Source: a virus
Lineage: Duplodnaviria > Heunggongvirae > Uroviricota > Caudoviricetes
Length of the DNA: 40,326 nucleotides
Virus record (IMG/VR): IMGVR_UViG_2531839665_000018
Strand: one strand, 5' to 3'
The stretch's first letter is position 1; the number at the start of each line of letters is the position of its first letter. Shown here one piece after another: positions 15,251 to 39,063 of this stretch. A program made the position numbers and the translations under genes. The notes beneath the pieces are model-generated. The model was not told where the DNA came from, did not search any database, and was given only the letters and a program-made list of their open reading frames with translations.

Positions 15251-15404
15251 TGCTCCCCCTGAGTAATTACAGGAAGATTACCCGCGCGCGAAACTGTTCT
15301 CCTTAACCCCCTGTTCTGGCCGTTTTCTTACAACAAAAGCCCTTTGTATCAGCCTGTTACGCTTTGCCATCATGACTGAAGAACCAGTCAGAGGGGCAAA
15401 AACT
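15251..15404. promoter_or_regulatory. Divergent late promoter region (P-Q leftward, O onward rightward)
   Basis: Inferred from P2-family architecture; no exact activator-site motif identified. Confidence 0.3.
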
Positions 15405-23661: not shown

Positions 23662-25764
23662 ATGAGTACCACAACACGAAAATTTAAAACCGTTATCACC
23701 GATACGGGTGCAAAAAAATTAGCTCAGGCAGCCGCGCCAGATGGTAAGCCTGTCCGCCTGACTCATATGGCCGTGGGCGACGGTGGCGGCACGTTGCCCA
23801 CACCAGACAGTAAGCAGACCCGTCTGGTGCATGAGGTGTGGCGACACACTGTTAATCGCGTCATCCTGGACGCAACACATCAGAACCGCATTATTGCGGA
23901 GCTGGTTATTCCTCCTGAAGCGGGCGGATTCTGGATCCGGGAAATTGGTGTATTTGATGAGCACGGCGATTTAATCGCGGCGGGCAATACTGCCGAAAGT
24001 TACAAGCCAACCGTTGCCGAGGGGTCCGGACGTGCACAAACATTTCGCACCATTCTAACCGTATCCAGCACTGCCAGCGTGGCGCTTACCGTGGATAACA
24101 CCATGGTGATGGCCACAGTGGATTACGTGGATGACAAACTGAAAGAGCATGAACAGTCACGACGTCACCCGGATGCCTCGCTGACCGCAAAAGGCTTTGT
24201 TCAACTCAGTAGCGCCACTAACAGCGATTCTGAAACGCTGGCCGCAACGCCGAAAGCGGTTAAGGCCGCGTATGACCTGGCTAACGGAAAATATACCGCT
24301 CAGGACGCCACGACGGCACGAAAAGGGATAGTCCAGCTCAGCAGTGCAACCAACAGCACGTCTGAAACGCTGGCAGCGACACCAAAAGCGGTTAAGGCGG
24401 TAATGGATGAAACGAACAAGAAAGCCCCATTAAACAGCCCGGCACTGACCGGAACGCCAACAACACCAACTGCACAACAGGGAACGAATAATACCCAAAT
24501 CGCAAGCACGGCTTTCGTTATGGCCGCGATTGCCGCACTTGTAGACTCTTCACCTGACGCACTGAACACGCTGAACGAGCTGGCGGCGGCGCTGGGCAAC
24601 GACCCGAATTTTGCGACCACCATGACTAACGCGCTTGCGGGTAAGCAACCGAAAGATGCCACCCTGACGGCGCTGGCCGGGCTTGCTACTGCGGCAGACA
24701 GGTTTCCGTATTTTACGGGGAATGATGTCGCCAGCCTGGCAACTCTGACAAAAGTAGGGCGGGATATTCTTGCGAAATCGACCGTTGCCGCCGTTATCGA
24801 ATACCTCGGTTTACAGGAAACGGTAAATCAGGCTTCTGGCGCATTACAGAAAAACCAGAACGGCGCAGATATTCCGGGGAAAGATACCTTCACCAAAAAT
24901 ATTGGTGCCTGCCGCGCATATAGCTCATGGCTGAATATTGGTGGCGATAGTCAGGTCTGGACAACCGCGCAATTTATTTCGTGGCTGGAGAGTCAGGGAG
25001 CATTTAACCATCCTTACTGGATGTGCAAAGGCTCATGGGCTTATGCAAATAATAAGGTCATTACAGATACAGGTTGCGGAAATATTTGTCTTGCAGGTGC
25101 TGTGGTAGAAGTTATTGGCACTCGCGGCGCAATGACCATACGCGTTACCACGCCGAGCACGTCCAGCGGTGGCGGAATTACTAACGCTCAATTCACTTAT
25201 ATTAATCATGGTGATGCTTATGCTCCTGGCTGGCGACGAGACTACAACACGAAAAATCAACAACCTGCATTTGCTTTAGGGCAAACAGGAAGCACTGTCG
25301 GAAATGATAAAGCTGTTGGCTGGAACTGGAATAGCGGGGTCTATAACGCAAACATTGGTGGCGCATCGACATTAATCCTCCACTTCAATATGAATACGGG
25401 GAGCTGCCCTGCTGTACAGTTCCGCGTGAATTACAGGAACGGCGGTATTTTTTATCGTTCAGCGCGTGATGGTTATGGATTTGAGGCTGACTGGTCAGAG
25501 TTTTACACCACGACCCGCAAACCCTCTGCGGGAGATGTTGGTGCATACACGCAGGCAGAATGTAACTCAAGGTTTATTACAGGTATTCGCCTTGGCGGTC
25601 TGTCATCTGTTCAGACATGGAATGGCCCCGGCTGGTCTGACAGGTCAGGTTATGTCGTTACGGGTTCAGTTAACGGAAACCGTGATGAATTAATTGATAC
25701 AACTCAGGCAAGGCCAATTCAGTATTGCATTAATGGAACGTGGTATAACGCGGGGAGTATTTAA
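23662..25764 (+). CDS. H: Tail fiber protein (P2 gpH family); C-terminal ~315 aa encoded inside the invertible segment
   Basis: 700 aa; tandem repeats VQLSSATNS.SETLAATPKAVKA; C-terminus ends INGTWYNAGSI, shared with the alternative C-terminus on the opposite strand. Confidence 0.85.
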   Translation: MSTTTRKFKTVITDTGAKKLAQAAAPDGKPVRLTHMAVGDGGGTLPTPDSKQTRLVHEVWRHTVNRVILDATHQNRIIAELVIPPEAGGFWIREIGVFDEHGDLIAAGNTAESYKPTVAEGSGRAQTFRTILTVSSTASVALTVDNTMVMATVDYVDDKLKEHEQSRRHPDASLTAKGFVQLSSATNSDSETLAATPKAVKAAYDLANGKYTAQDATTARKGIVQLSSATNSTSETLAATPKAVKAVMDETNKKAPLNSPALTGTPTTPTAQQGTNNTQIASTAFVMAAIAALVDSSPDALNTLNELAAALGNDPNFATTMTNALAGKQPKDATLTALAGLATAADRFPYFTGNDVASLATLTKVGRDILAKSTVAAVIEYLGLQETVNQASGALQKNQNGADIPGKDTFTKNIGACRAYSSWLNIGGDSQVWTTAQFISWLESQGAFNHPYWMCKGSWAYANNKVITDTGCGNICLAGAVVEVIGTRGAMTIRVTTPSTSSGGGITNAQFTYINHGDAYAPGWRRDYNTKNQQPAFALGQTGSTVGNDKAVGWNWNSGVYNANIGGASTLILHFNMNTGSCPAVQFRVNYRNGGIFYRSARDGYGFEADWSEFYTTTRKPSAGDVGAYTQAECNSRFITGIRLGGLSSVQTWNGPGWSDRSGYVVTGSVNGNRDELIDTTQARPIQYCINGTWYNAGSI
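24794..24819. other. Left crossover site of the invertible segment (gix/cix/hix-like, inside H)
   Basis: TTATCGAATACCTCGGTTTACAGGAA, close to the gix consensus as recalled; first part of a ~73-bp perfect inverted repeat (24803-24875 versus 28041-28113). Confidence 0.6.
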
Positions 25765-25766
25765 TT

Positions 25767-26300
25767 ATGATGCACTTAAAAAATATTACTGCTGGCAACC
25801 CTAAAACAAAAGAGCAATACCAGCTAACGAAACAATTTAACATCAAATGGCTTTATACAGAGGATGGGAAAAACTGGTATGAGGAACAAAAGAACTTTCA
25901 GCCTGATACGTTGAAAATGGTCTATGACCACAACGACGTTATTATTTGTATTGAAAAGGATGTTTCAGCAATTAATCCAGAAGGCGCAAGCGTCGTTGAG
26001 GTTCCAGATATTACAGCAAATCGCCGGGCTGATATTTCGGGTAAATGGATGTTCAAAGATGGCGTAGTGATAAAGCGAACTTATACCGAGGAGGAACAGA
26101 GGCAGCAGGCAGAGAATGAAAAGCAAAGCCTGTTGCAACTTGTCAGGGATAAAACCCAGCTATGGGACTCACAGCTACGGCTGGGCATCATTTCCGACGA
26201 GAATAAACAAAAATTAACCGAGTGGATGCTCTATGCGCAGAAAGTCGAATCCACAGACACCTCCAGCCTGCCAGTAACATTTCCCGAACAACCTGAATGA
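25767..26300 (+). CDS. G: Tail fiber assembly protein (gpG/Tfa family)
   Basis: 177 aa; N-terminal half nearly identical to the oppositely oriented copy at 26329..26856. Confidence 0.8.
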   Translation: MMHLKNITAGNPKTKEQYQLTKQFNIKWLYTEDGKNWYEEQKNFQPDTLKMVYDHNDVIICIEKDVSAINPEGASVVEVPDITANRRADISGKWMFKDGVVIKRTYTEEEQRQQAENEKQSLLQLVRDKTQLWDSQLRLGIISDENKQKLTEWMLYAQKVESTDTSSLPVTFPEQPE

Positions 26301-26328: not shown

Positions 26329-26856
26329 TTATTCAGGCTTTTGTGGCCATTCAGGATTTGCCGTATCCACACGGCTGACCAGAACACTGTAGCGTTCCCA
26401 TGCTTCCAGTCGTGTGCGTTCCTCATCCGTTGCCATATTCAGCCTGACAGCGCGTTCCAGTGGCTGAATAACGCTTTCTGCTTCGGAAAGTAACGCGGCC
26501 TTTTGTGATTCGGCCTGTTGTTGCTGTTCATCTGCCGTATAAATCCGTTTAACCACAGCTCCGTCCTTAAACATCCACTTACCGGAATCATCGGCCCGAC
26601 GATTGGCTGTTATATCGGGGACTTCAACAACGCTAAAGCCTTCAGGATTAAGTGTGGAGGCATCTTTAGTGATGGCTACAATAATATTATTTTCATCGTA
26701 AACAATCTTTATTGTGTCTGGCTGAAAATTCTTTACCTCTTCATACCAGTTCTTCCCGTCTTCAGAGTAAAGCCAGATAACTCCGTGCTTCTTTGTTAAC
26801 TCATACTGTTCCGGTGTTTTAGCATTACCAATTTTTATGTTCTTTAAGTGGATCAT
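26329..26856 (-). CDS. Alternative tail fiber assembly protein (G'), inside the invertible segment
   Basis: 175 aa, conserved N-terminus and divergent C-terminus relative to G; opposite strand. Confidence 0.8.
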
Positions 26857-26857
26857 A

Positions 26858-28096
26858 TTAAACGCTCGCTACATTATACCATGTGCCATTTATATACTTT
26901 TGAACGGGTCTGTAATAAACACCAGCTATATTATCGGCAGAATTGGACCCTGTATCCTGAACATTTATACCAGACAATACATGACCTGAAGGGCACTGGA
27001 AGTTCCATGTTTGCCAGTTGTTCACACCATAATATTGCTGTGAGCCAAGCCGAACATCTTTCACATATCGGGAATCAATGTTATCCCAGTTGCTTGGTTG
27101 TATCTGACCGTTTACAGCAAATATCACCGAGTTATCTGTATTTCGCTGACTATAGAAATGCCAGCCTGAATCATCACCAAGCTCTGCAACAGTTGGTCTT
27201 GACGAATTTCCCCACAAGTTAAATGATGCATTACGGGCAGCGGTATTTGCACTTGAAAGTGTGAAGAACTTACTTTCCCCAGCCTGAATACCCTTTAATG
27301 ATCTTGCTGAACCATTTATAAAGCGGAATACATGCACACCATTAGCATAAGCATCCAGCACCCCATCACCATTTTGTTTAAACCCGGTATCGTTATCTCC
27401 TAAAACTATTGAATTTCCACCCAGGGCATTAGCCGTTCCAATCCCCAGATTTCCGCTAAAAATGGCATTAATACCGAATATTGAGTGAGAACAATAAAAC
27501 CCTCGCCCATTGTTAAAATCCAGAATGGCTTGTGCGTTCGTGCTTTCTGTCGCGGGATTAGTTGCTCCCCACTTATATGTTGTTTGACCGACGGTATAAT
27601 CCTGAGTTGGAACAATAACCGTTAGCCCTTCTTCAGCAGAAACCCGCACAGGAAAAGCCCTGCCTTCAACGTAAAAAACGCTGCATACATCATCTTCTTT
27701 AAGGCTTGTTACAATGGAATGGATTGCGCGCTCATTAGTCTGATATGTCGAAAAATAACCTGCCGCATATGAACCACGATCAGTCCAGCCACCAGGCATT
27801 ACCATTCCATTGAATTCGCAGTTATTCATTTCGTAATTACCATCGGCAGATGTGGTCGTTATAATCACTCTGGAAGCCAGCTCGCCAGTGCTGCCTGTGG
27901 AACGCCGGAAAATAACTGGATACCACTTTCCACCAACTGCATTAGACGGCGCATTAAATGCGTACTGCTGCATTCCTTTTTTCTTATCCACCTCGCCTTT
28001 GCTGTAAACATTAATGTTACTCAGGAAGCGATCCTTATCAGGAATATCTGCGCCGTTCTGGTTTTTCTGTAATGCGCCAGAAGCCTGATTTACCGT
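26858..28096 (-). CDS. Alternative tail-fiber C-terminal segment (promoterless; would fuse to the H N-terminus after inversion)
   Basis: Reading frame is open from the right crossover site through the track ORF 26858..27991; ends [11 protein letters not shown] like H. Confidence 0.7.
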
Positions 28097-28122
28097 TTCC
28101 TGTAAACCGAGGTTTTAGATAA
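28097..28122. other. Right crossover site of the invertible segment (gix/cix-like)
   Basis: Reverse complement reads TTATCTAAAACCTCGGTTTACAGGAA; lies just upstream of the invertase gene. Confidence 0.6.
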
Positions 28123-28158
28123 TGGCCGTTTCCGGCCTGCATGGCATGATTTGCGCTT

Positions 28159-28776
28159 TTGGACGGGAGATTCAGTGTGCTGATTGGTTATGTAAGGGTA
28201 TCAACAAATGACCAGAATACAGACCTGCAACGAAACGCTCTTGTTTGTGCAGGATGTGAACAAATATTTGAAGATAAATTAAGCGGGACAAAGACAGACC
28301 GACCGGGATTAAAACGCGCTTTAAAGCGGCTTCAAAAAGGTGACACGCTGGTTGTCTGGAAACTGGATCGCCTCGGGCGAAGCATGAAACATCTGATTTC
28401 TCTCGTCGGGGAACTACGGGAGCGAGGGATTAATTTTCGCAGTCTGACCGACAGCATAGATACATCTTCTCCAATGGGGCGTTTTTTCTTCCACGTTATG
28501 GGTGCCCTGGCTGAAATGGAACGTGAATTAATTGTTGAACGTACACTGGCCGGACTGGCGGCAGCGCGCGCACGGGGGCGCACAGGCGGACGTCGCCCGA
28601 AGCTGACAAAAGAACAGCATGAGCAAATAGCTAGGCTGATCAAAAACGGTCATGACAGGAAACAACTGGCGATCATTTACGACATCGGCATATCGACAAT
28701 TTATCGTTATCACCCTGTAGGCGATATACAGGCTGAAGAAACAACCAGGCAGACTCAGGAAAATGAAAACCGCTAA
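28159..28776 (+). CDS. Serine DNA invertase (Hin/Gin/Cin/Pin family)
   Basis: Resolvase N-terminal catalytic region GYVRVSTNDQ...DTLVVWKLDRLGRSMKHL and C-terminal HTH; adjacent to the invertible segment. The track start is a TTG; a nearby GTG (VLIGYVRVST) is the more likely start. Confidence 0.9.
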   Translation: MDGRFSVLIGYVRVSTNDQNTDLQRNALVCAGCEQIFEDKLSGTKTDRPGLKRALKRLQKGDTLVVWKLDRLGRSMKHLISLVGELRERGINFRSLTDSIDTSSPMGRFFFHVMGALAEMERELIVERTLAGLAAARARGRTGGRRPKLTKEQHEQIARLIKNGHDRKQLAIIYDIGISTIYRYHPVGDIQAEETTRQTQENENR

Positions 28777-28801
28777 TCTGACCATTAGCGGTTTTGCGTT
28801 A
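28770..28801. terminator. Candidate bidirectional terminator between invertase and U
   Basis: CCGCTAAT-N6-ATTAGCGG stem with T-runs on both strands; coordinates +/-2 bp. Confidence 0.4.
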
Positions 28802-28802
28802 A

Positions 28803-29297
28803 TCAAAACAGCCCTTTAACGGAGCTGGCCGCGCTGTTAAGGGATGATGTGACCTTATCTTTGAAGCCGGACAGCATATCACTGAACGATGAGGATTGCA
28901 GGCGCTCCCGCAAATCCTCATCACAGCGTTCAAGGGTCAGTGAAAATTCTATCTTTTTCGCCTTACCGTAGCGATCAAACTCGGAACGGGTCGTATTCGT
29001 TCCGGTCAGGACATACATGCCGTAAATCTGCCCGACGCCATCAATCAAAGGCCAGGGTCGTCCTGTATACGCCTGCGTGGTCAGCAGCGACAGCGACACT
29101 TCGCCACCTGTAATTTCAGGATAAAGCACACCAGAAAGAACGATGCGATCATCACCTGCACCGATATACTGCCAGCTTGCTGAACGGTTAACGCGTTCAT
29201 TTTTCACATGCCGCCAGCTTTTGTTTTGCTGTAACTGCTGATGCGGCAGCGTGCGCAGCTCAAAAACAAACATGCCGTAGATCATCATCATGGCCAT
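28803..29297 (-). CDS. U: Tail protein (P2 gpU family)
   Basis: 164 aa; adjacent to the tape-measure gene on the same strand. Confidence 0.8.
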   Translation of the reverse strand: MAMMMIYGMFVFELRTLPHQQLQQNKSWRHVKNERVNRSASWQYIGAGDDRIVLSGVLYPEITGGEVSLSLLTTQAYTGRPWPLIDGVGQIYGMYVLTGTNTTRSEFDRYGKAKKIEFSLTLERCDEDLRERLQSSSFSDMLSGFKDKVTSSLNSAASSVKGLF

Positions 29298-29303
29298 GAC
29301 TCC

Positions 29304-32120
29304 TCAATCTTTATCGTAAAAACTGCCACGCCCAGCACGGGCGCGCCGTTCCATTTCTGCCCTGACCATTTCACCGACCAGTTTCGCCAGTTCGCGGGGA
29401 TTCTGCGTAACAACGTTATGCAGATGAACATGAATTTCACCGCCAAATCCGGAGGCAACAGTCTCCCGGTTACGGGAAGTTGCAGGAACTGATGCCACTG
29501 GCGATCGTATGGCCTCTGCCACCGGGCGGGAGCTGGCCGCAACAACAGGGACCAGCGCCGGAGGCAGCGGAGCCGGAACCACAGGTGTGATATTAATTGC
29601 GGGGGCAGGCTTACTGACCTGCGCAATCTTCCGCTCCTGCCACTCCCCACGAACAGCAAGTGCGCGGGGCAGGTTCTTAAAGACAATATCGCCGGGGCCA
29701 ATGCGTTTTTTCGTCTCATCAACCAGCTTACCTGTGTTATCAGCAATTTTGCTGAGTCTGCGTAGCGTCCCGGTATTGCTGTCTGTGAGCGGTTTGTTGT
29801 CTTTGGGTTTATCACCTCCGGTGCCATTGCCATTTTCCACAGGCTTCGGCGGATTGATTTTCGCCAGGTCCCCCTGAAGCAAGGCAACCTTGTCCTGAAG
29901 AATGGCCGCACGCTGTGCGTCTTCGATTTTCTTGCGCGCCCTTTCCGCTTCATCCGGAAGCACACCGAGCTTTTCAAGTATCCACGCCAGCGTATCCAGC
30001 AACATTTTTGCAGGTGTCAGAACAAGTTGTAACGCACCACCAAGAACGTTACCGAATATCTCGCCAGCACTGGTACATTTATCCAGCGTTTCCTTGCTGG
30101 ACTCCATCGGTGACAGCAGCGATTTAAACCAGTTAAACACCTGGCTTATCCCGCTTCCGATTGCGTCAAAAACAGGACCAAACCGTTCAAAGGTTTCGCG
30201 CAACGGGGCCAGCCGCTCCATAATCCCACTGAACACCCCGGCAAAAAATGCCCTGATTGGGTCCCAGTATTTCCAGATAAGAATGGCAGCTCCGGCAAGC
30301 GCAGCCACGATAAGACCAACCGGACTGAACAGCGCCCCGATAGCGCCCCCCAGTAACGAAACGGAACCCGTCACCATTCCCCATAGTGCTGGCAGAACCC
30401 TGACAGCATTCATTGATCCGGTCAGGAGGGAAAAACCAAGACGCAGTTTTGCCAGCGGGCCAGCAAGCACACCAATAGCCAGCGGCAACGAGCCAACCGT
30501 TGCAGTCATTGCCAGCAGTGCACCGCCTGCAATCAGTAGCTGGCGCGTCAGTGCGGGATGGGCCTGCGCCAGCGCCGTCACCTTTGATACCACACGCGTG
30601 AGCCACTGCGTGACAGAACGCAGCGGACCGTCAATCAGATCTGCAATGCGGATGCGCAACCCTTCCCATGCACTGCTGAGTGATTTCAGATCGCCGTCAA
30701 GGTTGTTGGCCATAACCTTTGCCGTGCGTTCAGCCTCACCGCGCGCGCCTTCAAGTTCTTTTCTCAGTTTGGGTAAGGAGCCGTCACCTGCCGCATCAAC
30801 GAGGGCCATAAATGATGTGAAAGCCTCTTCTCCGGCAATGTCCTTAAAGAACGATACCCGGTCAACTTCCCCGTATTTGCGGGTAGCTTTATAAAGGTCA
30901 GCCAGCACATCCTCCATCGGGCGCATTTTGCCCCCGGCATCCGAGACAGACACGCCAAGCTCTTTCAGCGCCTCTGCTGCCGCCTTTGGCGGTGATGCCA
31001 GACGAGCCAGGCTGGCACGCATTGCCGTACCAGCATCACTCCCCGTGATACCCATATTCGCCAGCACGCCCGCCATCGCTGCGGCCTGCTCCAGCGATAT
31101 TCCCAGCTTACCCGCCACCGGACCTGCATATTTCATGGTTTCACCCAGTGCGCGAAGGTCAGTGTTGGTACGGGTAAACGCTGCGGTGAGTGTGTCGCCG
31201 ACCCGGTCCATCTGGTCAGCAGAAAGACCGAACTGCGTCAGAATATTTGAGCCAATATCCGCCGTCTCACCGAGGTCCATACCGCCAGCCGTTGCCATGC
31301 TCAGTACGCCAGGGAGCGCAGCCTGAATGGCCTGTGGTGTGAAGCCAGCCATTGCAAGAAATGCCTGCCCACTGGCGGCATCGCCTGCGGTGAACTGCGT
31401 TTCAGAGCCAAGTTTTAACGCCTGCTCACGCAGCGCCTTAAACTGCGGGCTGTTTTTGTCGATTCGCGTCAGTGCCTGAACGCGGGACATCTCTTTCCCG
31501 AACCCGATCGCAGGCTGCAAAAAACGCCCGGCAGCATAGCCGCCCGCCGCTGCCGCACCAATTGCCAGCGCACCACCTGTTTTCAGTTTTCCCGCTGTTT
31601 CCTGCGCGCGCGAATACCGCTCACGCGCCTGCGTTACACGCGCAAGCGCCTGCCGTTCGCGTTCAAGCTGGTTGTTGTACTGTTCGGTGCGTCTGATGGC
31701 CTGCTGGATGGTGTTATCGCTGCCTGTCAGGGAAATGCCGTGGCGTTTCAGCTCTCCGCCAATCTCCCGCATTTTCTGAATTTCCCGTGTGCGCGATTCA
31801 TTCAGGCGTTCAAGCCGGGTGCTTAACTGCTGCATCAGCTTTTGTTGTTTTTCGCTGAGCACTGTACCCGTGCGTTGTAACTGATTAAGGGCGTTAAGCT
31901 GGCGTCGTGCTTTCACGATACCCGCATCCGCTTTACTGACAGCGTCGCGGGCGCGCTCAAATGAACGCGCCTGACGCTCGAGATTTTTGATCGCCCCCTG
32001 CGTTCGCTGGATGGAGTCACCAAACTGCCCCATCAGGCGGCGGGCGTTTTCGGCAGGCCGGGTCAGCCTGTCAACGGCGCTGAAAGCGACCCGGATATCA
32101 AGAGTCTTCATTGTCTGCAT
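29304..32120 (-). CDS. T: Tail tape measure protein (P2 gpT family)
   Basis: About 940 aa, coiled-coil N-terminal half then Gly/Ala-rich hydrophobic segments; start taken at an internal Met (track start 32147). Confidence 0.85.
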   Translation of the reverse strand: MQTMKTLDIRVAFSAVDRLTRPAENARRLMGQFGDSIQRTQGAIKNLERQARSFERARDAVSKADAGIVKARRQLNALNQLQRTGTVLSEKQQKLMQQLSTRLERLNESRTREIQKMREIGGELKRHGISLTGSDNTIQQAIRRTEQYNNQLERERQALARVTQARERYSRAQETAGKLKTGGALAIGAAAAGGYAAGRFLQPAIGFGKEMSRVQALTRIDKNSPQFKALREQALKLGSETQFTAGDAASGQAFLAMAGFTPQAIQAALPGVLSMATAGGMDLGETADIGSNILTQFGLSADQMDRVGDTLTAAFTRTNTDLRALGETMKYAGPVAGKLGISLEQAAAMAGVLANMGITGSDAGTAMRASLARLASPPKAAAEALKELGVSVSDAGGKMRPMEDVLADLYKATRKYGEVDRVSFFKDIAGEEAFTSFMALVDAAGDGSLPKLRKELEGARGEAERTAKVMANNLDGDLKSLSSAWEGLRIRIADLIDGPLRSVTQWLTRVVSKVTALAQAHPALTRQLLIAGGALLAMTATVGSLPLAIGVLAGPLAKLRLGFSLLTGSMNAVRVLPALWGMVTGSVSLLGGAIGALFSPVGLIVAALAGAAILIWKYWDPIRAFFAGVFSGIMERLAPLRETFERFGPVFDAIGSGISQVFNWFKSLLSPMESSKETLDKCTSAGEIFGNVLGGALQLVLTPAKMLLDTLAWILEKLGVLPDEAERARKKIEDAQRAAILQDKVALLQGDLAKINPPKPVENGNGTGGDKPKDNKPLTDSNTGTLRRLSKIADNTGKLVDETKKRIGPGDIVFKNLPRALAVRGEWQERKIAQVSKPAPAINITPVVPAPLPPALVPVVAASSRPVAEAIRSPVASVPATSRNRETVASGFGGEIHVHLHNVVTQNPRELAKLVGEMVRAEMERRARAGRGSFYDKD

Positions 32121-32627
32121 TCCCGCTGCGAAGTGCCGCCCGCTCACGCCAGCTAACCACTTCGCCGGGCGTCATCATGAAGATTTCGGCGGGCGACCAG
32201 TTAAAAATAACGGCAATATCTGCCACAAAGTCTTCTATGTGCTCAAAGCACACAACCGTGATCAGGCTTCCGTCGCCTGTTCGTTCTTCCCGCCAGAGTC
32301 CGCACCGCTCAAAAAATTTACGGCAACCACACATAACTGAATAAAGTCACGGGATGCCATTTTTTTGATCGTCACTTCATCCAGTCGCGGTGATGTCACG
32401 CGTGACAGCAGCGTAAACATGGATTCCGCTTTCAGATTCAGCACATCAGACAGCGACAAATCTCGCAGAGATCCAGCCTGCTCAATAGCCCCGGTGATCT
32501 CCACATACGTGATTTTTTCGCCGCCTCGCTCAATTGGTTGGGTAAGTTTTACGCCACGCTCACTGGTTTCTTTCACAGTGTCAGCAACTACCGTGTTTTC
32601 GGTATCGATGTTTTTCGTCTCTTTCAT
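32098..32627 (-). CDS. Tail assembly chaperone E+E' made by programmed -1 frameshift (slippery T_TTT_TTG at 32310-32316, minus strand)
   Basis: E frame reads AAT TTT TTG (..VNFL..); the -1 frame continues as FFERCG..., which is the track ORF 32098..32334. Frames checked codon by codon. Confidence 0.6.
32262..32627 (-). CDS. E: Tail assembly chaperone (P2 gpE family)
   Basis: ORF between the tube gene and tape measure, containing the slippery heptamer near its 3' end. Confidence 0.75.
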   Translation of the reverse strand: MKETKNIDTENTVVADTVKETSERGVKLTQPIERGGEKITYVEITGAIEQAGSLRDLSLSDVLNLKAESMFTLLSRVTSPRLDEVTIKKMASRDFIQLCVVAVNFLSGADSGGKNEQATEA

Positions 32628-32681
32628 CAGGAAACTCCTTTCAGTCAGAGGCGACGCACTGCGCCGCCTGCATATTACTTA

Positions 32682-33194
32682 TCAGCCAAGCCCAAGCGCG
32701 GAACGGATGCGATCGGGCACAATGTCCTTGCCGTCCTTCCGGTAAATGAAGTTCAGCAGGTCAATCTCCCACAGCGGGCGATCGTTAACGCTCAGCTTGT
32801 AGTAGGTGTTTTTAATGGCGTAAGAGTGTGATGTGGCTTCGCCCTGTTTGGCTTCCCCCATATCAATTTCCGTCACACGTCCGCGCATTTCGACTTCATA
32901 CAGGTCGCTTTCTGCATCGGTGTAGTATTCACCCGCAAAACGCAGCAGCGTGCCGTCAATCGTGCCGCCATACTTAAGGAACAGCTCACGAACTGCGCCC
33001 CCCATGACAAAGCTCGCATCAAGCGCGGAGTCGTCCAGACCGAGATCAATACTTACCGCACCCATCATGCCACCACCCCGGTAGCTGTCGGTTTTGCGCG
33101 TCAGCTTAGGCAGAGTGACGGACGTCACCTTACCCACTTCGTTTTCACCATCCACAAACAGCGTAAAAAAGCGAAGATGTTTTGGCACAGCCAT
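32682..33194 (-). CDS. FII: Major tail tube protein (P2 gpFII family)
   Basis: 170 aa; immediately downstream of the sheath gene on the same strand. Confidence 0.85.
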   Translation of the reverse strand: MAVPKHLRFFTLFVDGENEVGKVTSVTLPKLTRKTDSYRGGGMMGAVSIDLGLDDSALDASFVMGGAVRELFLKYGGTIDGTLLRFAGEYYTDAESDLYEVEMRGRVTEIDMGEAKQGEATSHSYAIKNTYYKLSVNDRPLWEIDLLNFIYRKDGKDIVPDRIRSALGLG

Positions 33195-34378
33195 CAGGCA
33201 CCTCCCAGCACCGCAAATGCGGGTTCAAAGTATTCATCAGTAAACGTCTGGTAAAGCTCCATATCTTCCAGCGGGGGAACAGGCGTATATTTGTAGCGAA
33301 TACGCACACGCCCCTGACGTAAATCCGTGGTGCTGTTATCCACCACGTCATACCAGCACTCCGCGCCAATCAGTTTCCCGGCAGTAACCAGTGAATCCAG
33401 TTTTGCCCTGATGGCACTGATAACATCCTTCACGTTCGCAGGCGTCAGTGGACTGTCGATGGTTTCAAACTGCGCTTCCGCAATTGAATCAGCCAACACC
33501 TGTGCGGTTCGGGTATACACCTCAAAGATGTAGGCGTTCGTTTCCGGTGTGCGGTTGCCCCAGAAGCGGAACCCGTTGCGACGAATAATGGTCGTGATTT
33601 CTTTGTTGTTGAGGCTGTTGGCATCACTGTCTTCGGCCTGCAACGACCAGAACACATGCCTGGACATCCCCAGCACATTTTTAACCGGAACGTTGGACAG
33701 CGATTTGTGCCAGCCCTGTTCATGGTCAATGTACGCACGGAGGCCGCACGCATAGGCAGGCGCGGGGAACGTTTCGTTTTTGCCACTTTTGGGGTTGTAG
33801 GCGATGAAGTCCGGCCATAAGAGCATCACCTCACGTTCGTTGAATTTCTGGCGGTAGGTAATCGCCTCAGCCATCGTGTTACAGCCGTGACATGAGGCAT
33901 ACACAAACGCGCGCAGTTTACCTGCAATCACGCACAGGGATTTTGTTACAGCCTCCGTGTCCAGCTCCGGCGCGGCCAGAATACGCGGACGGTATCCGAT
34001 GCTTTCATCCTGCTCTGCAACAAGCAGCGCATACATCCCCGTATAGCTGCCGTCATCCTCAGAACCACCGATAACCAGTTGATCCTGCGTCTTTCCGTCT
34101 TCTTCTTTGTGTTCAGCCACGCGAACGACGATTACCTTTGTGCTCACCTGGTCTGCAATGGCCTTAAGCGCACGATAAAGCGTCCCCGTTGTCCCGCATT
34201 TTCCCAGCACGTCATTGACGCGGGTCAGCAGTGTGGGCTTGTTCAGCGGGAACAGCTTCGCGTCCGCATCATCCGCCGTTGCCACGATACCGATAACGCT
34301 GGAATCAACATCGTTAATCGCAGTTACCAGGTCGGTATTTTCCGTAACACGGGCACCATGAAAACGAGTTTCACTCAT
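33194..34378 (-). CDS. FI: Tail sheath protein (P2 gpFI family)
   Basis: 394 aa; synteny with FII-E-T-U. Confidence 0.85.
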   Translation of the reverse strand: MSETRFHGARVTENTDLVTAINDVDSSVIGIVATADDADAKLFPLNKPTLLTRVNDVLGKCGTTGTLYRALKAIADQVSTKVIVVRVAEHKEEDGKTQDQLVIGGSEDDGSYTGMYALLVAEQDESIGYRPRILAAPELDTEAVTKSLCVIAGKLRAFVYASCHGCNTMAEAITYRQKFNEREVMLLWPDFIAYNPKSGKNETFPAPAYACGLRAYIDHEQGWHKSLSNVPVKNVLGMSRHVFWSLQAEDSDANSLNNKEITTIIRRNGFRFWGNRTPETNAYIFEVYTRTAQVLADSIAEAQFETIDSPLTPANVKDVISAIRAKLDSLVTAGKLIGAECWYDVVDNSTTDLRQGRVRIRYKYTPVPPLEDMELYQTFTDEYFEPAFAVLGGA

Positions 34379-34535
34379 AGCTTCAGCCCCTTGTATCCGT
34401 TAAATGATTCGGCAACAATCATCACCCACCACGCGCGCAATCTCACCCCTGCGCCATTCTCCCGCCACGGCGACAACAAAAAGCAGTAACCCCCTCCGCA
34501 CGCACATGCGACCATGCCGCACAGGGAGGGAACAG

Positions 34536-35645
34536 ATGACCGACACCACCATGCAATTGCTCAGTCAGGGCACAGACCCCGTGAAAATGCCGGATTTTGA
34601 TATTCTCGCCGAGGGTAAAACGCTGTCCGGCGTGGCAGAACGCCTGATGAGCCTGTCACTGACCGACAACCGGGGATTTGAGGCGGACCAGCTCACCATC
34701 ACGCTGGATGATGCCGATGGCCAGTTGCAGCTACCGCCACGGGGCGCGCGTCTGACGGTTCTCATTGGCTGGAAAGGGGAACCGCTGACAGAAAAAGGCA
34801 CTTACATTGTTGATGAAATCGCTCACGAAGGACCGCCGGACAGGCTGACTGTTTCAGCCAGAAGCGCAGATTTTCGGGATGAATTTAATGTTAAACGTGA
34901 GGCGTCCTGGCATGATGTGACCGTTGAACGTGTGGTATCCGCCATCGCTCATCGGTACGGCCTGAAACCGCAAATCAGCGAAATGCTGATGGATATCGAA
35001 ATCGACCACGCCGACCAGACTGAAGAAAGCGACATGTCCTTCCTTACGCGCATGGCGGAAATGCTGGGCGCAATCACCACGGTAAAAAGCGGTAATCTGT
35101 TATTCATCATGCCCGGCGGTGGCGTGAACGCACAGGGCCAGCCGTTGCCATCGTTCGCCATCACACGCAGCAGCGGCGATCGCCATCAGTTCCGCATTGC
35201 TGACCGCGAGGCGTATACGGGGGTACGCGCTTACTGGCTTGATCTTAATTACGGGAAAAAGAAAAAAGTCAGCGTGAAACGCCGCAAACCGCCAAAACCC
35301 AAAAAGGAGAAAAGCAGCAGCCGTGAAGGTGATTATATGGAAGGCGCGGAAGGCAATGTGTTTGTGTTACGCAAGACTTATCAGAACGAGCAGGCAGCAA
35401 GACGCGCAGCGGCGGCAAAGTGGCAGCAGCTACAACGCGGAGCCGCATCATTTTCCATCACGCTGGCGCGTGGACGTGCAGAACTCTACCCCGAAATGCA
35501 TGGCACGGTAACAGGATTTAAAAGCGAGATTGATAATCAGGACTGGATTATTGCGAAAGCCGAGCACACCATTGATAACAGCGGCTTTACCACACAGCTT
35601 GAGCTTGAGGCAAAAATCCCGGAATGGATAGCAGAAACAGAGTGA
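34536..35645 (+). CDS. D: Tail protein D (P2 gpD family)
   Basis: Start at the internal Met with strong RBS GGAGG (track ORF starts at 34404); 369 aa. Confidence 0.8.
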   Translation: MTDTTMQLLSQGTDPVKMPDFDILAEGKTLSGVAERLMSLSLTDNRGFEADQLTITLDDADGQLQLPPRGARLTVLIGWKGEPLTEKGTYIVDEIAHEGPPDRLTVSARSADFRDEFNVKREASWHDVTVERVVSAIAHRYGLKPQISEMLMDIEIDHADQTEESDMSFLTRMAEMLGAITTVKSGNLLFIMPGGGVNAQGQPLPSFAITRSSGDRHQFRIADREAYTGVRAYWLDLNYGKKKKVSVKRRKPPKPKKEKSSSREGDYMEGAEGNVFVLRKTYQNEQAARRAAAAKWQQLQRGAASFSITLARGRAELYPEMHGTVTGFKSEIDNQDWIIAKAEHTIDNSGFTTQLELEAKIPEWIAETE

Positions 35646-35765
35646 GCAACTTAGACATATTAGCTCAAACTTAAACTGGCAAGTTTACAGTATAGAATTA
35701 AACATAAACGACGGTCCGCTCCGTGTCAGAAGCGGACTTTGTCATCCCTATGTAAGGTTGATTGC

Positions 35766-36788
35766 TTAATACGCATTTAATTTAAATTTGTATTTGCCTT
35801 CTATGTAATGGATAAATTCAATTATGCTTTTTTCTATCGCATCTAATATATGAATATATCCATCCCGATTTAAGGTCCTATCCAATTCAAAGTGATGAAC
35901 TATCCCATGTCTATATTGTATGATTTCAGAAATTCGATTCTCAAGAAAATCAACTGATTTTCCAATTCTTTTTTTCTTATAAAGAATCGCTCTCACATCT
36001 ATATCCAGCCACTCTTTATATGCTTTGTTTAGGTGGGTTAAGTTTTGAAAAGTGTAATTTCTTGCAATAACACTTTCTATTGAAATATTTCCTTTCTCTA
36101 TCTCAAGCAGAATATCAAAATCAACTTTTTGCTTATACGATGTTCTTTTTGCTATTGCGAAAGGATCGTACTTTATAAGTATTTGAAAAGCTCTAGAGAA
36201 AAAGTATTCAAACATAGCAACCGCAAAAGGTACTAATCCATTATATATAACTCTACTGGGATCCATACATTGCATGTAATCAAAGTATTCGGATAAGCCG
36301 CCATCTTCCGGTAGGTTTAATTTAATAGAAGGTTCAGGTAAGGCATGTTTAACAGCGGAAATCTCATGATGGACATGATTAAATATTGAAGAAATGCCAC
36401 GACTGATCGGACTACTAGAATCCTTCCATAGAGGAGCGTACCTATTTTTCCCATAATCACCTATAAGTGTTCCACCAAAAAGACTCCTTGCGCCTTTTAG
36501 AACATCATTAAGCATTTTTACATCATGCCAACTAGCGCTATATAAATTACGCACATGCAATGCCCATTTATTACCAGATATGTGTAATTCGTCATTTGAA
36601 ACAGGATATATATCAGCCGAAACTCCATCTGTAGATTTGAAGTCCGTATCATCAAACCAAGAGTAATTCAACGTTCCTTGGGGCCATTCCCACAAATGTT
36701 TACACCTTTTAAAACCTAAATTTTCAAGGTAATTTTTAAGTTCGTTTCTAGTTGCTTTTTTAGGGTACAGCGTTATATCTCTTCCCAT
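35766..36788 (-). CDS. Hypothetical 340-aa protein in an AT-rich insert; C-terminal Rx4H HEPN-like motif
   Basis: Strongly AT-rich compared with flanking D and ogr; opposite strand; motif RHGIVHH near the C-terminus; no other recognisable domain. Confidence 0.55.
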   Translation of the reverse strand: MGRDITLYPKKATRNELKNYLENLGFKRCKHLWEWPQGTLNYSWFDDTDFKSTDGVSADIYPVSNDELHISGNKWALHVRNLYSASWHDVKMLNDVLKGARSLFGGTLIGDYGKNRYAPLWKDSSSPISRGISSIFNHVHHEISAVKHALPEPSIKLNLPEDGGLSEYFDYMQCMDPSRVIYNGLVPFAVAMFEYFFSRAFQILIKYDPFAIAKRTSYKQKVDFDILLEIEKGNISIESVIARNYTFQNLTHLNKAYKEWLDIDVRAILYKKKRIGKSVDFLENRISEIIQYRHGIVHHFELDRTLNRDGYIHILDAIEKSIIEFIHYIEGKYKFKLNAY

Positions 36789-36979: not shown

Positions 36980-37240
36980 ATGTTCCGTTGTCCGCTTTGT
37001 GGCGCATCTGCCCGTATCCGCACAAGTCGTCCGGAAAATGATTCAAACACCGTGCGGCAAAAGTATTACCAGTGTAACAATCTGGAATGCGGCGTATGCT
37101 TCTCAACACTGGAAGCTTTCCATAAATTCACATCGAAACACGCCTCCGGCGTTCACTCTTCAGAAGGTATCCCGTGGCATGAGCTACCAGCTTCACACAG
37201 GGGAAACAATCAGATGAGTTTGCCTTTACCTCAGAATTAA
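36980..37240 (+). CDS. ogr: Late gene transcriptional activator, zinc finger (Ogr/Delta family)
   Basis: MFRCPLCGASARIRTSR...YYQCNNLECGVCF has the C-x2-C...C-x4-C pattern and N-terminus typical of Ogr; strong RBS AGGGAGG. Confidence 0.8.
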   Translation: MFRCPLCGASARIRTSRPENDSNTVRQKYYQCNNLECGVCFSTLEAFHKFTSKHASGVHSSEGIPWHELPASHRGNNQMSLPLPQN

Positions 37241-37832: not shown

Positions 37833-38165
37833 ATGGCATTAATCAAATGTCCTGAATGCCAGAAAGAGGTGAGCGATTCAGCATTGTATTGCCCTGCTTG
37901 CGGTAAACAAATAAAAAAACTTAAGCGTTCATTTTTTGGAAAGCTCATTAAGTGGATATTTATATTATTTAATATTTTTATGATCTATACGCTTTTAGTT
38001 GGACTGGGAGGCACTAGTGAAATAATAAATAATGCTACATCCGATGCCGAAAAAGCCGGTGCAGTTATTGGTACAGGCTTAGGTTTAATTACCATTGGAA
38101 GTTTATGGGTTATTGGCGATATCATTATCGGAATTTTAGTATTTCTTACTAAACCAAAAGGATAA
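37833..38165 (+). CDS. Zinc-ribbon membrane protein
   Basis: N-terminal CPEC...CPAC zinc ribbon followed by two hydrophobic helices; AT-rich. Confidence 0.5.
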   Translation: MALIKCPECQKEVSDSALYCPACGKQIKKLKRSFFGKLIKWIFILFNIFMIYTLLVGLGGTSEIINNATSDAEKAGAVIGTGLGLITIGSLWVIGDIIIGILVFLTKPKG

Positions 38166-38169
38166 CAAA

Positions 38170-39063
38170 ATGAAAAATATAATTTTTTCTATAGGTGCAT
38201 CATTTATATCAATTAGTGTACTGCCTGTTCACGCAGCAACTGAACATAATAACTTCAATGCAGTACTCCAGTGCCGAGCAATAGAAAATAATAAAGACAG
38301 ACTTTCTTGTTACGATAAGTCAATACAACCGACTCGAACGAAAGTTGCTGAAAAATTCGAAAGCAGAGATCAATGCCCTGATGAGAAAGATGATGACAGA
38401 CGTTTATCTTGTTATGATCGTTTTTTTTCTCCAACATTTACTCCATCTGTAAACTCAAAATCTAAAACGGAAAAGCCAGTAACAACAGAGGCTCAGCAAC
38501 CAAATCTTTCTGAGATATCTAAATGCCGAGCAGAAAATGATAAAGAAGCCAGACTAAACTGCTACGATAAACTATTCCCACAGGATAAAGCTGTTCAAGC
38601 TGAATCAAAATTAGAGAAAGCCAAAGATGTAGGAAAATGGCACACATCCATTACTACATCGCCAATTGATGATTCGAAAAATGTAATTTTATCGTTAGAA
38701 AGTGATGATTATATCAGAACTCCATTTGGAGAAGCGGTTACTCCCACTCTGTTTATAGCTTGCCGAGAAAAGAAAACCGAAGTATTTCTTAGTTGGGATG
38801 TATATTTAGGCCTTGAACAAACCAGCATGCTTTATCGTCTTGATAAACAGAAAGCAGTTGAGCGAAACTGGCTAGTATCTACAGATACAAAGGCTGTTTT
38901 TTATAAAGGTAATGACATTGATTTCATCCGAAAACTAGCCAACTCAAACAAAATGTATACAAAAATAACTCCTTATAATGAGAGCCCTGTAAGTGCAACT
39001 TTCAATTTAAACGGCCTGTCAAACGCGCTAAAACCACTTCAAGCTGCTTGTAACTGGAAATAG
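38170..39063 (+). CDS. Secreted repeat protein (three RLSCYD-type repeats)
   Basis: N-terminal signal peptide; repeats DRLSCYDKSI / RRLSCYDRFF / ARLNCYDKLF; AT-rich. Confidence 0.5.
   Translation: MKNIIFSIGASFISISVLPVHAATEHNNFNAVLQCRAIENNKDRLSCYDKSIQPTRTKVAEKFESRDQCPDEKDDDRRLSCYDRFFSPTFTPSVNSKSKTEKPVTTEAQQPNLSEISKCRAENDKEARLNCYDKLFPQDKAVQAESKLEKAKDVGKWHTSITTSPIDDSKNVILSLESDDYIRTPFGEAVTPTLFIACREKKTEVFLSWDVYLGLEQTSMLYRLDKQKAVERNWLVSTDTKAVFYKGNDIDFIRKLANSNKMYTKITPYNESPVSATFNLNGLSNALKPLQAACNWK

Follow-up and report, generated by a model that had tools for sequence, protein, structure and literature searches.

The minus-strand orientation of the tail genes FI, FII, E/E', T and U in this prophage is, with a probability of about 0.9, the layout that is standard for both P88-like (Xuanwuvirus) prophages and a wider P2-related clade in Enterobacterales, inherited from an ancestral inversion. 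Under this model, a segment with the F-operon promoter and FI-FII-E/E'-T-U would have been inverted once in the ancestor of the clade, between the end of the tail-fibre operon and the U/D boundary, and inherited since. The former F operon would then have become two divergent late units, FI-FII-E/E'-T-U leftward and D rightward, separated by a 157-bp control region with one Ogr-type dyad and -10-like elements equidistant on both sides. The leftward unit would stop at a bidirectional terminator shared with the last gene of the tail-fibre operon, here the invertase, and the invertase itself would flip only the tail-fibre segment between two gix sites, with no role in the block.

The gene calls for the 40,326-nucleotide stretch analysed here (the window) bear out an earlier note on this DNA, which had U-T-E-FII-FI read from the minus strand, flanked by an invertase and a D gene that are both on the plus strand; the block spans 28803-34378. 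The genes of the region are the following.

23662-25764, plus strand: H
25767-26300, plus strand: G (Pfam Caudo_TAP)
26329-26856, minus strand: alternative G' (Pfam Caudo_TAP)
26858-27991, minus strand: H' fragment
28159-28776, plus strand: Gin/Hin-type serine DNA invertase (Pfam Resolvase, 1.3e-50; HTH_7, 8.8e-13)
28803-29297, minus strand: gpU tail protein (Pfam Phage_P2_GpU, 1.5e-38; protein 100% identical to P88 gp44)
29304-32147, minus strand: gpT tape-measure protein (Pfam PhageMin_Tail, 4e-58)
32098-32334, minus strand: E' frame (Pfam Phage_P2_GpE, 1.7e-12)
32262-32627, minus strand: gpE
32316-32310, minus strand: slippery T6G site (TTTTTTG) of E/E', read straight from the sequence
32682-33194, minus strand: gpFII tail tube (Pfam Phage_tube, 6.3e-47)
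33194-34378, minus strand: gpFI tail sheath (Pfam Phage_sheath_1, Gp18_domIII_N and Phage_sheath_1C)
34536-35645, plus strand: gpD baseplate hub, or late control D protein (Pfam Phage_GPD, 2.8e-17)
36980-37240, plus strand: Ogr/Delta-family late-gene activator (Pfam Ogr_Delta, 5.1e-14)

The likely start of D is the ATG at 34536, which is preceded by GGGAGGG and agrees with the P88 annotation. The D protein is 96.7-99.7% identical to Xuanwuvirus D (96.7% to that of P88) and shares, in a three-way alignment, 52% identity with its counterparts in P2 and Fels-2. Between D and ogr lies a cargo gene (35766-36788) for which PADLOC returned no match.

The closest relatives share this order. Over the 7.8-kb tail region (window 27900-35700), P88 (Xuanwuvirus) matches 98% of the query at 97.5% identity, a likeness high enough to place the region with the Xuanwuvirus, or P88-like, phages (Peduoviridae), and twelve further phage records cover at least 80% of the query in one collinear place. 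In the P88 annotation, the invertase and gp51 (D) are plus-strand genes and gp44-gp49 (U, T, E', E, FII, FI) minus-strand genes; together with a tblastn map, this annotation gives the same genes and strands across the tail region. More generally, the Xuanwuvirus members P88, P884B11, 500465-2, 520873, PhiR44_2, Chuche and Citrobacter phage PhiSM have an identical order and identical strands from the tail fibre through ogr, with 95-97.5% identity over the 7.8-kb region and the same 157-bp FI-D spacer. They differ only in cargo or variable parts: the gene that separates D from ogr, and the C-termini of the tail fibres. P88 lacks a counterpart of 35766-36788, its ogr match coming directly after D. 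The comparison with relatives that the earlier note had called for thus shows the same orientation to be the norm in close relatives, the outcome that it had itself named as speaking against its reading, and of the origins it had offered, a lineage-specific arrangement is the one that stands, its range taking in the P88-like phages and a much wider clade. The arrangement is already known, in that it can be read from deposited annotated genomes. The literature on Xuanwuvirus, P88, KSP20, SEN4/SEN5 and P2-like inversion characterises member phages, and we found the inverted block discussed nowhere in it; a paper on a Xenorhabdus tailocin describes tail-fibre inversions within a collinear locus and is irrelevant to the block.

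P2 (Peduovirus) shares the gene set and the E/E' slippery site, a -1 frameshift being annotated in its record at the equivalent position, and it has an Ogr-type activator site upstream of FI. In P2, however, FI-FII-E-T-U-D form one rightward operon under pF, with U overlapping D, whereas the window has an inverted FI-U block and a D gene on its own; P2 also has no invertase.

The spacer between FI and D, which the earlier note had correctly measured, carries the following elements, the promoter assignments being predictions.

34379-34535: FI-D control region, exactly 157 bp, with proposed divergent late promoters
34418-34423, minus strand: predicted -10 hexamer GATGAT of the FI promoter, with a predicted start near 34411
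34458-34475: putative Ogr/Delta-type activator dyad, TCT-N12-ACA, with one mismatch to the TGT-N12-ACA consensus
34510-34515, plus strand: predicted -10 hexamer GACCAT of the D promoter, with a predicted start near 34522

When 31 FI-D spacers of the inverted clade were aligned, central and flanking blocks proved conserved. At the position homologous to the dyad, a perfect TGT-N12-ACA was present in 25 of the 31, compared to 3.6% of shuffled spacers, and two Providencia loci had no recognisable dyad in this spacer. The TCT-N12-ACA variant is shared by the Xuanwuvirus relatives and also occurs in the P/O spacer of the window itself (15315-15332); P2's own activator sites read TGT-N12-CCA. P2-type late promoters are defined by a TGT-N12-ACA dyad centred about 55 bp upstream of the transcription start, and a strict search for this dyad over the whole window returned four matches, none at a late control region, with 10.25 expected by chance. 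That search missed the late control regions, the prophage's own sites having turned out to be TCT-N12-ACA. The predicted dyads are presumably bound by the Ogr/Delta-family protein encoded at 36980-37240.

Hexamers of the form xAxxxT lie 35-41 nt past the dyad on both sides in the window and in all five reference half-promoters, and their register here is that of the mapped P2 promoters pP, pO and pF. The distance from the dyad centre to the FI start codon is 74.5-88.5 bp across the clade, 88.5 bp in the window and 82.5 bp for P2 pF. The closest parallel is the pP/pO region of P2, for which the P2 record annotates one activator site serving both promoters, with starts 47 nt past each dyad end. 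In both regions a single dyad sits midway in a divergent spacer of 150-175 bp, and the -10-like hexamers of the window are in the P2 register on both sides; in P2, this design serves the packaging and head genes P and O, whereas its predicted copy in the window would serve FI and D. The earlier note had held that the spacer must contain divergent late promoters, and the dyad and the hexamer register support this at the level of sequence. From these features we infer that the spacer holds divergent late promoters for FI and D, and that both genes are probably activated from the common dyad. The evolutionary step that such a design implies, in which the inversion would have moved the symmetric Ogr dyad of the F promoter beside a promoter-less D so that one site came to drive two divergent late units, we put at even odds.

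The order could, on the other hand, be ancient and fixed with a spacer that holds the late promoter of FI only, D being served by an activator-independent promoter or expressed in some other way. The tightly conserved distance from the dyad to FI favours this possibility, given that the distance to D, with D starts partly extrapolated from tblastn matches, ranges from 40 to 116 bp in the survey; moreover, the predicted D leader in the window is only about 14 nt long. A sigma-70 consensus scan of the spacer found no promoter, which suggests that any promoter there is weak or activator-dependent; the scan is uninformative as to late promoters because activator-dependent ones are expected to give no match. 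Nevertheless, clade members share, in the right half of the spacer, a conserved CGCGC-rich block followed by the xAxxxT hexamer, the hexamer of the window falls exactly in the register of the mapped P2 promoters, and P2 itself serves two divergent promoters from one dyad. In addition, D is a structural late gene the timing of which must match that of FI through U. Taking these lines of evidence into account, we consider separate expression of D rather unlikely.

If the inversion did bring both units under the shared dyad, it would have created a new activator-dependent promoter in nature, repeating the P2 pP/pO design; no description of an Ogr dyad driving FI and D after inversion was found in the literature searched. 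The spacer would then add a second natural case of the design annotated for P2, in which one dyad serves two promoters. It would offer a simple, testable system for the bidirectional action of Ogr-type activators and a model for an operon split by inversion with late-gene control retained.

Beyond E. coli, the layout was followed in contigs taken from one genome per species, and the counts given here refer to the best 80 of 425 confirmed loci. Among these, U-T-FII-FI is opposite to D in all 29 other-species loci in which D is at least 61% identical. About 15 genera show the inverted order, namely Salmonella, Kluyvera, Kosakonia, Enterobacter, Klebsiella, Xenorhabdus, Photorhabdus, Providencia, Rouxiella, Dryocola, Hafnia, Citrobacter, Yersinia, Morganella and Pectobacterium. 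All loci among the 80 with D at most 54% identical and with U or FI locatable are collinear. Isolated phages of other genera have the same inverted FI-U block opposite D, namely Klebsiella phage 3LV2017 (Reginaelenavirus), Salmonella SEN4/SEN5 (Senquatrovirus) and Serratia phage KSP20, the D proteins of which are 63-74% identical. The earlier note had regarded collinearity as the rule in P2-type phages, which is right for P2, Fels-2, phiCTX and phiRSA1, and the collinear order of these four phages indicates that the inversion is old and derived.

Repeated origin of the inverted order, or its spread by recombination of tail modules, would agree with the mosaic nature of P2-like phages and with the great variation of the tail-fibre and cargo regions beside the block. 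However, D, which lies outside the block, and FI, which lies inside it, give the same two groups among the best 80 of 425 loci and match the arrangement without exception: the two top-level clusters comprise 30 inverted and 50 collinear loci for D, and 29 inverted and 40 collinear loci for FI. Throughout the inverted clade, furthermore, the spacers can be aligned and the position of the dyad is constant. Such repeated or horizontal acquisition is accordingly improbable, and the clustering, which is an identity clustering of 80 loci, unrooted and without bootstraps, points to a single ancient inversion event as the probable origin.

At the left junction, the inverted block ends in a signal that it shares with its neighbour. 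The earlier note had put the left breakpoint at the invertase terminator, and a hairpin common to the invertase and U is indeed found there, with many relatives having GC-rich hairpins at the equivalent position. Its coordinates, and those of the two gix-type sites, are given below.

24794-24819, plus strand: left gix-type site, within H, 2 mismatches to Mu gix
28097-28122, minus strand: right gix-type site, just upstream of the invertase gene, 1 mismatch to Mu gix
28766-28795: bidirectional intrinsic-terminator hairpin where the invertase gene and U converge; its 12-bp stem is flanked by a run of A and, on the opposite side, a run of T

The hairpin folds at -16.9 and -17.9 kcal/mol on the two strands (z = -4.0 and -3.6). 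The gene that converges on U varies: in 3LV2017 it is one for a tail collar fibre, in SEN5 one for tail-fibre assembly. The records of 3LV2017, SEN5 and KSP20 have no invertase annotated at this junction.

The DNA of the invertase region shares 92-97% identity with the gin regions of Mu, D108 and PhiR68_1, and the gix sites lie in an inverted repeat of 102 nt, 91% complementary, the right arm of which is 28025-28126. The H/G tail-fibre segment has the hallmarks of the Gin/Hin/Cin/Pin systems, that is, a serine invertase, inverted gix sites and alternative fibre C-termini with assembly genes, G and G' being on opposite strands. It resembles Fels-2 (Felsduovirus) and the G segment of Mu, in which a Gin/Hin-family invertase likewise lies beside an invertible H/G segment flanked by 26-bp gix sites; in Fels-2, unlike the window, a collinear FI...D operon comes after the invertase. 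The substrate of the invertase, as predicted from these sites, is the H/G segment at 24.8-28.1 kb and not the tail block.

An aberrant or programmed inversion by the adjacent Gin-type enzyme, recent in origin and with the tail block as a second invertible segment, had been among the suggestions of the earlier note, and it could draw on the left end of the block adjoining the invertase gene and on a 9-bp inverted match close to both ends. This match, TCCGTTAAA, exists, and its right copy is at 34396-34404 as the note had it; the left copy is on the minus strand at 28815-28823, within the 3' end of U, rather than at 28809-28817. We rejected it as a relic of recombination: a 9-nt inverted match between junction zones of such size arises in 9% of shuffles (P ~0.09), which is within chance, and the spacer copy falls in a stretch carried by only the four nearest sequences of the spacer alignment. 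Matches to Mu gix with at most 3 mismatches occur in the whole window only at the two sites around the tail-fibre segment and at neither end of the FI-U block, in line with the earlier failure to see a gix-like site at the breakpoints; a relaxed half-site scan of the block ends gave at best 10 of 18, a background score that about 200 positions in the window reach. A synthetic P2-type U-to-D junction had its halves joined in none of the 1,421 complete E. coli genomes that matched the halves, and no close relative has the block in the other orientation. Moreover, 26 of the 30 inverted loci (among the best 80 of 425) have no invertase match, only 4 having one, and Fels-2 has an invertase and yet is collinear. 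An invertase-made block is therefore very improbable.

A misoriented 5.6-kb block in the present assembly, for which nothing specific speaks beyond the short intergenic regions that bound it, is practically negligible as an explanation, given that the invertase-to-D region is collinear with the window in 1,104 independently assembled complete E. coli genomes and the FI/spacer/D junction is intact in 1,358 of 5,426 (nearly all at 95-99% identity), that both junctions recur in 13 phage records as well as 29 other species (best 80 of 425 loci), that all open reading frames are intact, and that the junctions carry functional-looking signals, namely the shared terminator and the conserved dyad. Prophage annotations in E. 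coli and other Enterobacterales should thus not treat this layout as a sign of rearrangement, misassembly or damage by the invertase; it reliably marks a large P88-like clade and occurs in roughly one in four complete E. coli genomes. Phages with this layout are active: P88 is mitomycin-inducible and plaque-forming, with a burst size of about 65 (PMC5285337), and PhiSM has been described as fully functional and spontaneously active (PMC6456863).

Annotation of the window by an ORF map and Pfam scans gave the following layout of the tail region and its flanks.

23662-25764, plus strand: H, which together with G ends the baseplate and tail-fibre genes
25767-26300, plus strand: G
26329-27991, minus strand: alternative tail-fibre assembly gene and the C-terminal fragment H', following G
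28159-28776, plus strand: serine invertase
28766-28795: hairpin at the convergence point of the invertase and U, flanked by runs of A and of T on opposite sides
28803-29297, minus strand: U
29304-32147, minus strand: T
32098-32627, minus strand: E/E', with an intact TTTTTTG slippery site at 32316-32310
32682-33194, minus strand: FII
33194-34378, minus strand: FI
34536, plus strand: likely ATG start of D, preceded by the ribosome-binding site GGGAGGG; the P88 annotation has the same start
35766-36788, minus strand: cargo gene, following D
36980-37240, plus strand: ogr, following the cargo gene

Both lines of annotation agree with the earlier note on the strands and order of the tail block (U to FI) relative to its neighbours. 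With the D start placed at ATG 34536, the FI-D spacer measures 157 bp. On either strand the hairpin folds well, and it resembles a bidirectional terminator. The earlier note contrasted this layout with P2-type phages, described as reading FI-FII-E-T-U-D in one direction, which is true of P2, Fels-2, Pseudomonas phiCTX and Ralstonia phiRSA1, all collinear unlike the window. It offered three explanations, namely a lineage-specific arrangement, an aberrant inversion mediated by the invertase, and misassembly.

The first of these proved correct, the inverted order being shared by P88, E. coli prophages and a wider clade. In a megablast search of phage records with 27900-35700 as the query, Escherichia phage P88 aligned collinearly as a single piece covering 98% of the query at 97.5% identity, and in 12 further records, among them Xuanwuvirus P884B11, 500465-2, 520873, PhiR44_2, Chuche and Citrobacter phage PhiSM, a single collinear location accounted for at least 80% of it. 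The P88 annotation assigns strands across the tail region exactly as in the window. Among 5,426 complete E. coli genomes, the whole region is collinear with the window in 1,104, and the 761-bp FI/spacer/D junction is intact in 1,358, nearly all at 95-99% identity; these intact junctions, with which the phage records agree, exclude misassembly. A P2-type test junction, in which the last 500 nt of U run into the first 500 nt of D on the same strand, was joined in none of the 1,421 E. coli genomes matching its halves; therefore, the orientation of the tail block is fixed among close relatives, and the inverted order is the norm there, an outcome that the earlier note had named as its own refutation. 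Both identity and gene order place the prophage in the P88-like group. Two records of this group, 520873 (CP025923/NC_049344) and 503458 (CP025874/NC_049341), each align as two separate segments, and an IS100/IS21-family element is annotated beneath the match. Two tape-measure products are listed in NC_049344, a sign of a possible insertion within or close to the tape-measure gene, and some deposited 'phages' of the group may be defective.

For a wider survey, one genome per bacterial species was scanned with an alignment of the D proteins of the window, P2 and Fels-2, and FI, FII, T, U, D, ogr, J, I and the invertase were mapped by tblastn on the best 80 of the 425 confirmed loci. Among these 80, D identity to the window is 61% or more in 29 loci, and in every one of them U-T-FII-FI lies opposite D, and J, I, D and ogr share a strand; at D identities of 54% or less, all loci in which U or FI could be located are collinear and P2-like. 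The 29 inverted loci come from Salmonella, Kluyvera, Kosakonia, Enterobacter, Klebsiella, Xenorhabdus, Photorhabdus, Providencia, Rouxiella, Dryocola, Hafnia, Citrobacter, Yersinia, Morganella and Pectobacterium. Average-linkage clustering of the best 80 loci by D, which lies outside the block, separated 30 inverted from 50 collinear loci, and clustering by FI, inside the block, separated 29 from 40 among the same 80, in both cases in exact match to the arrangement. The inverted layout is likewise annotated in Klebsiella phage 3LV2017 (Reginaelenavirus), Salmonella phage SEN5 (Senquatrovirus) and the Serratia phage KSP20 fragment. One surveyed locus, in NZ_JBQPOM010000071.1, is a P88-type prophage with D 98% identical to that of the window; its label, the Gram-positive Vagococcus sp. 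WN89Y, likely reflects assembly contamination or mislabelling.

Because P2, Fels-2, phiCTX and phiRSA1 are collinear, the collinear order is the ancestral state and the inverted order a derived, clade-defining character. The simplest reading of the identity clustering would be one old inversion event.

Phages with the inverted block are viable. P88 is mitomycin C-inducible and plaque-forming, with a burst size of ~65, and has been imaged by electron microscopy together with the related phage pro147 (PMC5285337). PhiSM of Citrobacter rodentium is reported to be fully functional and spontaneously active (PMC6456863), and the KSP20-related Serratia prophage PP4 yields P2-like particles by electron microscopy (PMC9826266). 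The inverted layout is compatible with normal tail assembly.

A recent or invertase-made inversion of the block is without support. Only two matches to the Mu gix site (1-2 mismatches) occur in the whole window, at 24794-24819 inside H and at 28097-28122 just upstream of the invertase, both within a 102-nt inverted repeat that is 91% complementary; the invertase therefore flips the 3.3-kb tail-fibre segment between them, as in Mu. A relaxed scan for gix half-sites gave no more than background scores at the ends of the tail block, bearing out the earlier observation that neither breakpoint has a gix-like site. Among the best 80 loci, tblastn found an invertase match in only 4 of 30 inverted ones, leaving 26 without; in these, U converges on tail-fibre genes, tail-fibre-assembly genes or unrelated ORFs. 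Fels-2 has an invertase in the same place as the window, yet its F operon is collinear. The 9-bp inverted match pointed out previously does exist, at 28815-28823 and 34396-34404, but is no more than chance, given that a match this long between zones of this size arises in 9% of shuffles; the spacer copy lies within a stretch found only in the four nearest sequences of the 31-spacer alignment. H' (26858-27991, minus strand; 377 aa) is without a Pfam match, and the expressed H has a gp37_C-like end; by this Pfam test, their receptor-binding ends are unrelated.

An inversion that split the F operon would leave D in need of its own promoter. When the FI-D spacer of the window was aligned with those of 30 inverted loci, a conserved centre was visible, and 25 of the 31 spacers contained exactly one perfect Ogr/Delta-type activator dyad, TGT-N12-ACA, compared to 3.6% of shuffled spacers. 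At the homologous position, the window (34458-34475) and the three relatives nearest to it carry TCT-N12-ACA, a variant also present in the window's own P/O spacer (15315-15332). Two Providencia spacers (loci L014 and L022) have no TGT-N12-ACA within one mismatch at that position and carry TCT...AGA there; late control in these loci may be different. The distance between the dyad centre and the FI start is 74.5-88.5 bp across the inverted clade, similar to that in P2 pF (82.5 bp). In the P2 record, a single site between the divergent P and O is annotated as 'activator binding site; pO, pP promoters', with the pO and pP transcription starts 47 nt past each dyad end. When seven half-promoters (P2 pO, pP and pF; window pO, pP, pD and pFI) were laid out from the dyad outward, all seven showed an xAxxxT hexamer 35-41 nt past the dyad. 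Two hexamers in the FI-D spacer lie in this register, each a predicted -10 element.

34510-34515, plus strand: D-side hexamer GACCAT
34423-34418, minus strand: FI-side hexamer GATGAT

By analogy with P2, transcription of D would start near 34522, with a leader of ~14 nt including the ribosome-binding site, and that of FI near 34411, with a leader of ~33 nt. Given the dyad and hexamer register shared with P2 pP/pO, we think that the spacer can be read as a second pP/pO-type unit, in which a predicted single Ogr dyad would serve two divergent late promoters. As a natural corollary, we infer that the inverted segment took pF along, whereby the symmetric dyad would have become available to drive D. 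CGCGC-rich blocks at 34431-34443 and 34500-34513, and at 15280-15292 in the P/O spacer, flank the dyads at a distance of ~20-37 nt, corresponding roughly to positions -35 to -20 in the predicted promoters; conserved through the inverted clade and visible also in P2 pP and pF, they may represent a common late-promoter element. Many non-E. coli spacers (L012-L032) have a third element, (G)TTGT(C), ~12 nt past the ACA half-site, giving the three-part pattern TGT-N12-ACA-N12-TGT, e.g. ACAACAGCCCCGCGTTGT in L017; the window is without it.

Annotated public genomes already document the inverted layout in at least three ICTV genera and in Serratia phage KSP20, and in the literature on member phages we found no paper commenting on the inversion in words. 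Only the proposed promoter pair, with FI and D sharing one dyad, is new, and mildly so.

The cargo gene encodes 340 aa; its match to HEPN_RiboL-PSP is weak and sub-threshold (E = 1.2e-4), and it has no match in PADLOC. Of the 1,201 E. coli genomes matching the cargo stretch, only 65 cover at least 80% of it, so that most are without the gene; P88, unlike the window, has no gene at this position. The D-ogr site looks like a variable accessory-gene slot, possibly with a role in defence. Downstream of ogr, a small zinc-ribbon protein and a VasI-family (type VI secretion) protein are encoded at 37833-39063 (plus strand); because they lie past ogr, the last P88-homologous gene, these genes probably belong to the host.
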